Shown here: positions 5,123 through 7,656 of the stretch, piece by piece
How the letters are laid out: the number at the start of each line of letters is the position of its first letter
Numbering within the stretch: the first letter of the stretch is position 1
Source: a virus
Reading direction: 5' to 3' (one strand)
Length of the DNA: 64,000 nucleotides
Virus record (IMG/VR): IMGVR_UViG_3300046005_001038
Location: 15,833 to 79,832 of that record
Translations under genes and position numbers: made by a program
Notes under the pieces: generated by a model
What the model saw: the letters and a program-made list of their open reading frames with translations, nothing else
What the model was told of the DNA's origin: nothing
The model's database searches: none

Positions 5123-5165
5123 TTGATAAATTCGACGAAGTGTGGTATGATTCTTCGTCGAATTT
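5123..5165 (+). promoter_or_regulatory. Promoter with the -10 element inside a 13-bp inverted repeat
   Basis: TTGATA-17nt-TATGAT. Inverted repeat AAATTCGACGAAG (5128-5140) / CTTCGTCGAATTT (5153-5165). Confidence 0.6.
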
Positions 5166-5186
5166 TTACGTTTAAAGGAAAGTAAA

Positions 5187-5654
5187 ATGCCATTAACCAC
5201 AGTTCAAGCAAGCAAATTAGAAGAACACGAAGGATTTAGAAGTAAAGTTTATAAATGTACAGCAGGATTGGATACAATTGGGATTGGATATTGTATTCCA
5301 GCGAATCCGCTAAATTTATCTAAAGCAGAAATTAAAACGCTGTACGATGTAGGTATCACACATGATAAAGCCATTTATTATTTAAAAATGGTCTGTAATC
5401 AAATAGAAGCTAAGTTAAGTCGAGAGCTTGATTGGTATGATGACTTAGACTCAAACACAAAGTATGTGTTAATTGATATGGCATATCAAATGGGTGTAGC
5501 GGGATTACTCGAATTTAAACAGTCGTTGAAATTAGTTAAAGCGGATAAATATAATGATGCTGCTAAAGAAATGCTACGCAGTAATTGGGCTAAACAAACG
5601 CCTAATCGAGCTAAATCTGTGACCGATATTTTGAAATCAGGTAAGATTCGATAA
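5187..5654 (+). CDS. GH24 (T4-like) lysozyme/endolysin 1
   Basis: HEG-x-YKC-x5-TIGIG catalytic triad (E-x8-C-x5-T), DMAYQMG, EML.S.WAKQTP.RA. Confidence 0.9.
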   Translation: MPLTTVQASKLEEHEGFRSKVYKCTAGLDTIGIGYCIPANPLNLSKAEIKTLYDVGITHDKAIYYLKMVCNQIEAKLSRELDWYDDLDSNTKYVLIDMAYQMGVAGLLEFKQSLKLVKADKYNDAAKEMLRSNWAKQTPNRAKSVTDILKSGKIR

Positions 5655-6082
5655 TGGCTAGAGAACCTTGTTCTCCCCCACAATCTGACGACTTAATTGC
5701 TAGGCATCAGTTTTATGCACAAGTAAGTTGTCAGTTACACGAATCTAATGTTGACATCGATGGTTTAGGTCGAAAGACCTCTGTGATGTTTGAACGGCTC
5801 GATAACATTAGAGAAGTTGTAAAAATGTACGCGACTAGGGGTAATACCATTATCGCGTGCATTTCTGTGTTGTGGATGCTTTTAGGTAGCGGCTTGACGA
5901 TGTATGTGCAATCAGTTATTGAATCTGCAAAACTAACTGTAGAAGCTGTACATGACCTCGAAAAACGAATGACGTTAGTTGAAGCTACAAATAACGCTAA
6001 TTCACCTGCCATTGAAAGTATTGAGAAAATAAAACGGAATTTAGCTACCCTTCAAAACGAAATGGATGAGAAACATCAATGA
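5654..6082 (+). CDS. Single-pass membrane protein with C-terminal coiled coil (holin-like or inner-membrane lysis accessory)
   Basis: TM segment IIACISVLWMLLGSGLTMYV and heptad-rich C-terminus. TAATG-coupled to the lysozyme. Confidence 0.55.
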   Translation: MAREPCSPPQSDDLIARHQFYAQVSCQLHESNVDIDGLGRKTSVMFERLDNIREVVKMYATRGNTIIACISVLWMLLGSGLTMYVQSVIESAKLTVEAVHDLEKRMTLVEATNNANSPAIESIEKIKRNLATLQNEMDEKHQ

Positions 6083-6504
6083 AAAAGATAGCTCTGATTT
6101 TAATGCTCGTTATTAGTTCTCCAATAATGAGCGATACTGTTCCAATTACCAGTTCTGAATTTGCTGTATCGAGTATATCTCGATTTGAATTAAGACGTTT
6201 GTATTTTATGAAAGACAAATGGGCTGATGGTGTTGGTATTGTGACACTTTATCAACGACCACCACATAGTTCAGAACACATACGATTTATTAGAGAAACC
6301 TTAGAATTAACACCAGCAACATACTATAGAGAATTAGCGTTATCTGTTAATGCAGGTAAAGGTTCTACTATTACCATTGTTAATTCTGATGAAGAAATGC
6401 TTGACAAAGCAACGGCAAAAGATAATGCGATTGGTTATTTAGATGTAGACACAATTATTTTTACATTAGATAAAACGACTAAATTACTCAAGGTAACTGA
6501 CTGA
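6079..6504 (+). CDS. Small secreted periplasmic-binding-protein-like protein (phosphate SBP-like single domain)
   Basis: Signal peptide, then ISRFELRRLYF..K..W.DG, S.EH..F....L, V.SDEEM....NAIGYL. Resembles the small PBP-fold proteins encoded next to porins in proteobacteria. Confidence 0.7.
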   Translation: MKKIALILMLVISSPIMSDTVPITSSEFAVSSISRFELRRLYFMKDKWADGVGIVTLYQRPPHSSEHIRFIRETLELTPATYYRELALSVNAGKGSTITIVNSDEEMLDKATAKDNAIGYLDVDTIIFTLDKTTKLLKVTD

Positions 6505-7604
6505 TGAAAAAAACATTAGCTGTTTTACTTTTAACCTTTACCTGTGGTGTACAAGCAAACGATAATTTAAGAGCCAATTTATCTGGCTTTATTTCAGCTA
6601 CTATGTTTAGCGACCCTGATTTCTACGAGAATACCGCTAAAGGTGCAGTAAATATAGACTTAGCTAAAGGCTCTTATTTATTTCATACACAATTAGCATC
6701 ATCTACTGATTTTCCAACGGAATCGTTAATTAGTCGAATGACGGTTGAGAAAGTATTTGGTGTAGCAGATGGTCACGAAATGTCGATTGTTGTCGGACGA
6801 TTTCCTAGATTATACTCATTCTTTAATGCGATAACCGATAATGTAGGTACATCTGGTTTAGCGATGTTGCCGTTATCACAATATAAGCGACGTACAGTCG
6901 CTGATAGTAGGATGATTTCTGGTGATGGAATTATGATGAGTTATCGATTTCATCAAGATGATTATTCGATAGAATTCACCGCAGACGTTAGTCAGGCTTC
7001 AAAAATAAACAATTGTATGATTCACATGGAGTTCTACAACAAACCTTGTGGTTATGCGTATGGTTTTAAATCTGATAATCCGAACTATGATTTCGGGATA
7101 ATATATGAAGACCCGACACTCAAAGTCCTCTTAGCTGTCATTGAGATTGACATCAAAGCGTATATCACAAATAGAAAAGACCCTGTTGCGTTGGCAACAT
7201 ATACAGTTGGTAATAGATGGCAACACAAACATTATAAGTTTGGTTTTATTAAGCAGCTCGATGATTGGTGGGTTCAAGCTGAAGGGACTTACAGAAACAT
7301 TTTAATGGCTGGTGTTGGTAAGGATTATGTACCTTACAATCAGCAAATAGGCGGTGACTTTGTGGTCGGTTATCATGTTAATGACGACATTTCAGCTTAC
7401 GTTGGTTATTCACTCAGTCGTTCTGCTATCGGGGATGGTAAATTTGACCTAGATGATAATTATGTTGGAGCAACTTACGCTAACGGGGATGGTTTTACTT
7501 ATTCTTTGGAGTATCACATTGGTCGTGGTAGAGATTGGAATAGGTATTTGTCACCTGATGATAATTGGTCATCTGCTGTATTTTCAATTTCAAAACAATT
7601 TTAA
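6504..7604 (+). CDS. Outer-membrane beta-barrel (porin-like) protein
   Basis: Sec signal (…CGVQA), N-terminal LSGF strand, VGRF, alternating aromatic beta strands, C-terminal beta-signal FSISKQF. Confidence 0.75.
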   Translation: MKKTLAVLLLTFTCGVQANDNLRANLSGFISATMFSDPDFYENTAKGAVNIDLAKGSYLFHTQLASSTDFPTESLISRMTVEKVFGVADGHEMSIVVGRFPRLYSFFNAITDNVGTSGLAMLPLSQYKRRTVADSRMISGDGIMMSYRFHQDDYSIEFTADVSQASKINNCMIHMEFYNKPCGYAYGFKSDNPNYDFGIIYEDPTLKVLLAVIEIDIKAYITNRKDPVALATYTVGNRWQHKHYKFGFIKQLDDWWVQAEGTYRNILMAGVGKDYVPYNQQIGGDFVVGYHVNDDISAYVGYSLSRSAIGDGKFDLDDNYVGATYANGDGFTYSLEYHIGRGRDWNRYLSPDDNWSSAVFSISKQF

Positions 7605-7618
7605 TTTTAAATTTCCTA

Positions 7619-7656
7619 TTGAACCCTAGTTTATTATTGTGATAGACTAGGGTTTT
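7619..7656 (+). promoter_or_regulatory. Hairpin terminator/promoter module, copy A
   Basis: TTGAACCCTAG…ATTGTGATAGACTAGGGTTTT. Related copies at 29336-29372 and 46841-46878 (- strand). Confidence 0.6.

Follow-up and report, generated by a model that had tools for sequence, protein, structure and literature searches.

The closest described counterpart of the system reported here is VpvABC of Vibrio cholerae, in which a porin, a periplasmic binding protein and a membrane diguanylate cyclase jointly sense an unknown signal (PMC12456836). Pairs of vpvAB without vpvC are common in many water-associated Proteobacteria, and that report makes no mention of phages (PMC12456836). In the literature nothing relevant was found on a phage porin with a periplasmic partner, nor on a dCache_3 protein with a porin. 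Here we describe a four-gene unit in a 64,000-nucleotide stretch of viral DNA (the window), which covers bases 15833–79832 of the 79.8-kb IMG/VR virus record IMGVR_UViG_3300046005_001038. In this unit a T4-type lysozyme gene is followed by genes for an inner-membrane protein, a small secreted protein and a porin. We give about even chances to the view that these are a soluble lysozyme gene and a separate mobile trio, the latter being a phage-derived sensing or gating module of the VpvABC type, with a small bitopic protein in the receptor's place. The same judgement takes in the origin of the trio, which would descend from a bacterial envelope-sensing cassette of that type. The four genes are as follows.

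5187–5654, + strand: gene 1, T4-type (GH24) lysozyme by sequence, 155 aa
5654–6082, + strand: gene 2, predicted bitopic inner-membrane protein, 142 aa
6079–6504, + strand: gene 3, predicted secreted one-lobe PstS-type relative, 141 aa
6504–7604, + strand: gene 4, outer-membrane porin with a modelled 16-strand fold, 366 aa

The four open reading frames (ORFs) are those of an original prediction made from the letters of the DNA, and the junctions between genes 1 and 2, 2 and 3, and 3 and 4 are the overlaps TAATG, ATGA and TGATG that it had described. A single transcription unit for the four genes is plausible.

The conserved unit is genes 2–4 and not the lysozyme, because the trio travels without gene 1 in a metagenome contig (L004) and the same layout recurs without a T4-type lysozyme in three further viral loci (L008–L010). 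A close relative of the window, the IMG/VR contig L001, keeps all four genes and the DNA polymerase. It is the only locus besides the window with a lysozyme beside the trio (gene 1, 61% identity), and there the junction of genes 1 and 2 is a 14-nt gap, whereas the ATGA and TGATG overlaps are kept. In L004, genes 2, 3 and 4 are the sole sequence in common with the 79.8-kb genome. They are 59–64% identical and retain the 4-nt (genes 2/3) and 1-nt (genes 3/4) overlaps, with no lysozyme beside them. The trio in L004 is flanked upstream by a divergent HD/kinase gene and downstream by a TnpB fragment, and the other ORFs match phage families, which makes the contig phage-like. The fragment, a TnpB/Cas12f-like TNB domain (9141–9383, - strand; 9e-14), lies at the contig end directly downstream of the trio, and hints at a route by which the module might move.

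The three further loci came from a scan of IMG/VR with one porin subgroup (A6). They belong to a 210-kb phage with terminal repeats (L008, record G002), to record G003 (L009) and to a 90-kb record, G004 (L010). In each the order is a membrane coiled-coil protein, a small secreted protein with the appearance of half a periplasmic binding protein (half-PBP) and a porin. The layout is therefore that of the window. The small secreted proteins are homologous to gene 3 (hhalign 99.3%, E 1e-20) and the porins fall in the same family as gene 4. In contrast to the window, the membrane partner is longer (214–244 aa) and the porin is only ~25–30% identical; coupling to a lysozyme belongs to the window. 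The original prediction had made its case depend on related phages keeping the pair of genes 3 and 4 linked to the lysozyme. That linkage is kept in L001 but is absent beside the trio in L004, and no PF00959 lysozyme is found in G002, G003 or G004. In L009 only, a stand-alone receiver-domain protein (PF00072, 1e-11) directly follows the porin (3800–4153). By reading of the ORFs alone, PhoH-like ATPase genes lie near the trio in L009 (4157–4840) and L010 (7912–8598).

Relatives of the trio are co-located on at least 14 contigs, an indirect count in which contigs were matched by their reported sizes. Matched in this way, contigs coincide between relatives in 12 cases for genes 2 and 3, five for genes 3 and 4 and five for genes 2 and 4, and every such contig of at least 7.9 kb has relatives of at least two of the three genes. 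Strict linkage of genes 2, 3 and 4 is thus shown across unrelated phage backgrounds. Other searches delimit the distribution of the module. IMG/VR scans with profiles A1, A4 and A2 returned the contig of L001 each time, and those with A10 and A11 no locus. The metagenome scan with A1 gave one locus, L004, and that with A4 none. No match was found by tblastn of genes 4 and 3 against 50,697 GenBank phages, or for gene 4 against plasmids, and Escherichia coli K-12 has no member of the gene 4 family. Two pattern scans of GTDB species genomes, one with GRFPRLxSF[YF], returned no relative, although the Halomonas relative described below has a variant motif and absence is not implied.

Gene 4 is an outer-membrane porin with, according to its model, a 16-strand fold. 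The protein has a signal peptide ending in VQA, cut before N, and a nearly invariant C-terminal F. Its AlphaFold2 (AF2) model (predicted local distance difference test, pLDDT, 71; predicted template modelling score, pTM, 0.70) consists of 16 long antiparallel strands. Foldseek matches it to OmpT, OmpF and OmpC at E ~1e-10 with a template modelling (TM) score of ~0.6. VIA-align gives Z 22.0 for V. cholerae OmpT (root-mean-square deviation 3.7, 292 aligned), 21.9 for Omp32 and 21.5 for OprP. On this scale ten 16-strand porins, PorB included, lie at Z 20–22, compared with 16–17 for 18-strand sugar porins and at most 15 for Occ, BamA and FadL. The model, the terminal F and these scores bear out the outer-membrane barrel that had been proposed from the signal peptide and a C-terminal beta-signal. 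By sequence the protein is not a member of Porin_1, Porin_4 or Porin_O_P, and no Pfam porin model matches gene 4 or any of 37 relatives (38 members) at E <= 1. A profile search of 1.8 billion representatives yielded 90 representatives of the family, which flags ~90 porin clusters without any Pfam model. The most conserved segment, GRFPRL.SF.N..TD...LPL.QYKRR, forms the loop between strands 5 and 6, at the position of the porin constriction loop L3; loop residues 103–136 are poorly modelled (pLDDT 35–46). A pair of cysteines, Cys171 and Cys182, is invariant.

Sequence comparison and models support gene 3 as a secreted one-lobe relative of the PstS-type binding proteins. The signal peptide noted originally is present, and D19-T20 are invariant immediately after the predicted cleavage. 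The ESM Atlas model (pLDDT 0.81) groups with ~140-aa bacterial proteins, some of them PBP_like_2, at TM 0.72–0.81. The AF2 model is poor (pLDDT 53) and its best fold matches are single PstS lobes at weak Z of 3.5–4.1. The mature protein of ~123 aa aligns to one PstS lobe only (structure chain residues ~90–260), and not to the two lobes that enclose a ligand. Gene 3 does not match PF12849, which two of 19 relatives match at E 0.023, and PDB sequence profile searches with genes 2 and 3 gave chance or coiled-coil matches only. The small binding-protein motifs reported for gene 3 in the original prediction are supported by the Atlas grouping, by the weak PstS-lobe matches of the AF2 model and by the bacterial homologue described next, as a likeness to one lobe.

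A tblastn search of PLSDB with the small protein of L009 led to a 1.8-Mb Halomonas replicon and a Pseudoalteromonas chromid. In Halomonas sp. PA16-9 (NZ_CP040452, 1.428 Mb) a half-PBP, which matches positions 94–188 of 267 of PBP_like_2, comes first, a porin second and a 1010-aa dCache_3-PAS-GGDEF-EAL protein third. The order of binder and porin is the same as in the phages, and profile comparison shows both proteins to be homologous to those of the window (gene 3, hhalign 95.7%, E 9.6e-9; gene 4, hhalign 95.6%, E 1.3e-8, 322 columns). The porins have in common a loop motif, GR...FYN..D.....LP...Y..R, and a C-terminal motif, EYH.G.GW...W....S.RF. However, identity is only ~18–27%, and the phages have no counterpart of the 1010-aa receptor; none of the phage loci examined has a GGDEF or dCache receptor gene next to the trio. 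Among the alternatives offered originally, this homology to a pair wired to a dCache_3-GGDEF-EAL receptor favours a captured uptake or sensing channel. The Pseudoalteromonas pair is annotated as 'phosphate ABC transporter substrate-binding protein' and 'porin' (Porin_4). Gene 4 shows no significant similarity to the Porin_4 protein of P. xiamenensis (hhalign 12%), and the Halomonas porin matches only itself among plasmids.

Gene 2 consists of a helical N-terminal part of ~63 aa, one transmembrane helix (~64–88) and a helical C-terminal part of ~55 aa. By the positive-inside rule the N-terminal part is predicted to be cytoplasmic and the C-terminal part periplasmic. Twenty relatives were found. 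Across 17 of these, column identity is 0.90 in the transmembrane helix and the C-terminal motif IESIEKIKRNLATLQ, against 0.67 in the N-terminal part. The protein matches no Pfam, PHROG, NCBIfam or PDB family, and the family searches detect neither an enzyme domain nor a Cache domain. Several of its traits are holin-like (small size, a single helix, a charged C-terminus and a gene next to that of a lysozyme), and none of them is specific to holins.

Comparison of the window with L001 shows that purifying selection has acted very strongly on both porin and binding protein. The proportion of differences at silent sites (pS) is 0.69–0.82 in all genes, which is saturated, while divergence at nonsynonymous sites (dN) is 0.072 for gene 4, 0.15 for gene 3, 0.24 for gene 2, 0.32 for gene 1 and 0.42 for DNA polymerase. 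By dN, with silent sites saturated, the porin changes ~six times more slowly than the polymerase. Because of this saturation the 88% identity of the porins reflects constraint and not recent transfer. Such constraint is unusual for a surface protein. The loop at the L3 position of gene 4 and the transmembrane helix of gene 2 are the most conserved parts. DNA of the window is found in lake-water metagenomes, where contigs 90–99% identical to it span genes 2–4 in several runs. In the same lake samples the L001 type of phage is ~15–20x deeper than the window type (window positions 4300–10000), and both have the module. A high-depth joint between 5480 and 7964 was considered as a deletion of the module and rejected: its loose ends match L001 exactly, and it is not a deletion because genes 2–4 of the L001 type have only 73% DNA identity, below the 85% identity limit of the comparison.

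These observations suggest how a module of the VpvABC type could work in a phage. The product of gene 4 would be exported during infection and form a specific channel in the outer membrane of the host. Gene 3 would bind the admitted solute, or dock on the porin, in the periplasm and report to the short periplasmic helix of gene 2, which through its conserved transmembrane and cytoplasmic helices may alter something within the infected cell. Of the possible outputs, control over when a late step such as lysis takes place is deemed the likeliest, because in two of the four phage lineages (window/L001 and L009/L010) the module has genes for cell-wall hydrolases or spanins beside it; two genes downstream of the L010 trio there is an M15 endolysin (3e-19). 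Overall the module probably serves to sense or to gate, and not to lyse the cell in a new way.

Several points weigh against this reading. The third component is conserved across phage lineages in architecture only, because hhalign detects no homology in sequence between gene 2 and the membrane partners of L008–L010 (4.7%). Next to the trios of L004 and L008 there is no gene for a cell-wall hydrolase. The module is located in a + strand block with the replication genes, not with the late structural genes, a position that fits a role throughout infection as well as one in lysis. The likeness to VpvABC is drawn from its published description, and the bacterial sequence homology is to the Halomonas pair. 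Finally, the gene order differs both from vpvABC, where the porin comes first, and from Halomonas, where the receptor comes last.

The alternative that survives best, though on the whole unlikely, is that channel and binder raise the supply of a limiting solute, e.g. phosphate, during replication. The company of replication genes on the + strand and the lake-water habitat would suit such an uptake aid, as would a basic cluster, K128-R129-R130, in the conserved loop of gene 4. The best fold matches of gene 4 include OprP and the anion-selective Omp32, but fold scores are tied among different porins and hence uninformative on selectivity. Likewise PhoH genes adjoin the module in two loci (by reading only) and BFVD holds porin-annotated proteins of uncultured phages, yet no inner-membrane transporter lies beside the pair, and the strictly linked gene 2 encodes a one-helix protein without the traits of a transporter. 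The single lobe of gene 3 makes the two-lobe cleft of PstS impossible, and the bacterial relatives are wired to signalling enzymes, not to ATP-binding cassette (ABC) permeases.

It is decidedly unlikely that the module is itself a clock for lysis, in which gene 2 would be a one-helix holin or holin regulator with a periplasmic tail held or released by gene 3 as this reads a solute let in by the porin of gene 4. If this were true, an outside signal would delay or trigger lysis, functionally like lysis inhibition in T4, from a captured front end of the VpvAB type.

An improbable role for the trio is superinfection exclusion or surface remodelling, by which the outer membrane would be altered against adsorption or injection by further phages. 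Phage outer-membrane proteins are a known class of morons (Lc of PA-2, Lom of lambda). A location next to replication genes would suggest expression before the late genes, and the module moves between unrelated phages, both consistent with this role. However, exclusion proteins as a rule evolve rapidly, and no gene of the region is under tighter constraint than gene 4. The bacterial relatives give no hint of exclusion, and the periplasmic binder would be left with no role.

The remaining readings involve the lysozyme. Judged by its sequence, gene 1 is a soluble T4-type (GH24) lysozyme. It matches PF00959 with 46 bits (cut-off 22.3; E 8e-12), the endolysin family phrog_7 at 1e-15 and T4 lysozyme structures at E 3e-20 over residues 13–152, the top match being the D20C mutant. 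The catalytic pattern E15-x8-C24-x5-T30, aligned to E11, D20 and T26 of T4, is conserved in L001. The sequence contains neither a signal peptide nor a signal-anchor-release (SAR) segment. The protein is therefore not by itself a periplasmic component. The original prediction of one protein for each envelope layer was right in its list of parts (lysozyme, inner-membrane, periplasmic and outer-membrane proteins), but its lysozyme carries no export signal. The window contains a second lysozyme at 11867–12352 (PF00959, 3.7e-6), kept in L001 (7279–7743). Its N-terminus is SAR-like, with KRR followed by the weakly hydrophobic, Ala/Ser-rich segment IIMISAAIALCVSSVI and then the catalytic Glu, and in this it resembles the SAR endolysin described for N4 gp61 (bioRxiv 10.1101/2025.11.12.688109). 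A 41-aa ORF with a C-terminal hydrophobic stretch (11749–11874) overlaps its start. This second enzyme is likely a SAR endolysin with a possible small membrane partner, and is a better candidate than gene 1 for the true endolysin.

It is quite improbable that genes 2–4 bridge the envelope after the lysozyme has acted and disrupt the outer membrane in place of Rz/Rz1, although a lysis device independent of spanins had been proposed originally. The missing lipobox o-spanin on which that proposal drew holds beyond the unit. Across all six frames of the 79.8-kb genome there is no lipobox candidate for an o-spanin or u-spanin, and the signal cleavage sites of genes 3 and 4 lack a Cys. The translational coupling of the trio to the lysozyme in the window, and the presence of its parts in inner membrane, periplasm and outer membrane, also fit a spanin replacement. 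However, the lysozyme linkage is confined to one lineage, and candidate o-spanins occur together with the trio. In L009 (G003) a lipoprotein beside the trio matches phrog_456, annotated as Rz-like spanin (E 3e-6), with a weak endolysin match also adjacent, and in the 210-kb phage (G002) a proline-rich 91-aa lipoprotein far from the trio is a candidate on sequence judgement only. Because other carriers have such candidate lipoproteins, it is improbable that the trio generally substitutes for spanins. Gene 2 differs from type II i-spanins, which have an N-terminal anchor and a long periplasmic coiled coil, in that its helix is central (64–88) and only ~55 residues are periplasmic. Conservation in gene 4 peaks in the loop at the eyelet position, which points to channel function, and the pair would descend from a signalling cassette. 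With the linkage limited to L001, spanin candidates in other carriers and a second, SAR-type lysozyme in the genome, the replacement of lysis functions is unsupported. In general, a spanin missing beside a lysozyme calls for a synteny check before a new lysis mechanism is claimed.

Least probable of all is a chance neighbourhood of an ordinary endolysin–holin pair (genes 1 and 2) and an unrelated moron pair (genes 3 and 4), since gene 2, for all its look of a class III holin (small, one helix, charged C-terminus, after a soluble lysozyme), travels with genes 3 and 4 and the same overlaps in the lysozyme-free L004, its relatives coincide with those of gene 3 on the 12 size-matched contigs, and in L001 the gap falls between genes 1 and 2 while the overlaps of genes 2–4 are kept.

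Three elements around the unit may bear on its transcription.

5123–5151, + strand: promoter-like site by hexamer match, TTGATA-17-TATGAT with a TG extension
5128–5165, + strand: upstream hairpin with a 13-bp stem and a T run, overlapping the promoter-like hexamers
7621–7655, + strand: hairpin like an intrinsic terminator, with a 16-bp stem and a T-rich tail after it, closing the unit

The terminator predicted originally (7619–7656) corresponds to the last of these, which folds at -23.1 kcal/mol (z = -4.9; none of 200 shuffles folds equally well). The single promoter predicted at 5123 is not established, because promoter-like sites in the region are no commoner than in shuffles (21 versus 21.0 ± 4.7), the site overlaps a hairpin, and an 11/12 match lies within gene 1. 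This match, TTGAAA-18-TATAAT at 5526–5555 in the 3' part of gene 1, is the best sigma-70-like pair of the region. It is ~100 nt ahead of gene 2 and could drive the trio independently of the lysozyme. The element at 5123–5165 probably ends the upstream gene, and may start the lysozyme–trio unit. Long T-tailed hairpins (5128–5165 and 7621–7655) thus flank the unit on both sides.

Just upstream of the lysozyme, 4386–5111 encodes a 241-aa protein that matches phrog_8902 (8e-35, function unknown) and, weakly, NUDIX (E 0.036). The replication block contains two likely homing endonuclease genes. One (9975–10454) is HNH-type, by reading only, and directly follows the DNA polymerase; the other (12363–13154) encodes a GIY-YIG/NUMOD3 protein (Pfam 1.6e-7) directly after the SAR-like lysozyme. 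A 3086-aa ORF (18788–28048, - strand) first suggested that the phage was N4-like, which was rejected, the product being a virion protein and not a virion RNA polymerase. It has a tape-measure-like part at ~300–700 and a lytic transglycosylase domain at ~830–1130.

If the module is of the VpvABC type and works as proposed, phages of several unrelated lineages provide the cells they infect with an outer-membrane channel and a periplasmic reader encoded by the virus. The virus as well as the host could then sense, or let in, something external while infection proceeds. Parts of such an arrangement have parallels in phages. Gene 4 has in common with Lc of PA-2, NmpC of DLP12 and the BFVD proteins that it is a phage-encoded protein with, as modelled, the 16-strand porin fold. 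Lc and NmpC, however, are morons of the OmpC family to which neither a binder nor a membrane partner is known to be linked, and gene 4, in contrast to them, matches no Pfam porin family. In T4 lysis inhibition the holin T and the periplasmic antiholin RI let an outside signal delay lysis. By analogy, T and RI resemble the trio in combining a one-helix membrane protein that has a periplasmic domain with a small periplasmic partner, but they have no sequence relation to it and no outer-membrane component, and a holin role of gene 2 is putative. Two-component spanins (lambda Rz/Rz1; N4 gp60/gp60a, for which see bioRxiv 10.1101/2025.11.12.688109) likewise place proteins in both membranes with a periplasmic connection, beside an endolysin. 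The trio differs in having no lipoprotein, no N-terminal type II anchor with a long periplasmic coiled coil, and a barrel in the outer membrane.

VpvABC and the phage trio both combine an outer-membrane porin, a periplasmic binder and an inner-membrane partner in one operon. The phage operon differs in that the GGDEF enzyme is replaced by a 142-aa bitopic protein, encoded upstream and not downstream, and in that the binder precedes the porin. The phage version would thus be a stripped-down cassette of the VpvABC type, short and highly constrained, with a tiny membrane partner replacing the large enzyme, and in this form it could ease the search for the ligand and for the contact between binder and membrane protein in VpvABC-type cassettes.

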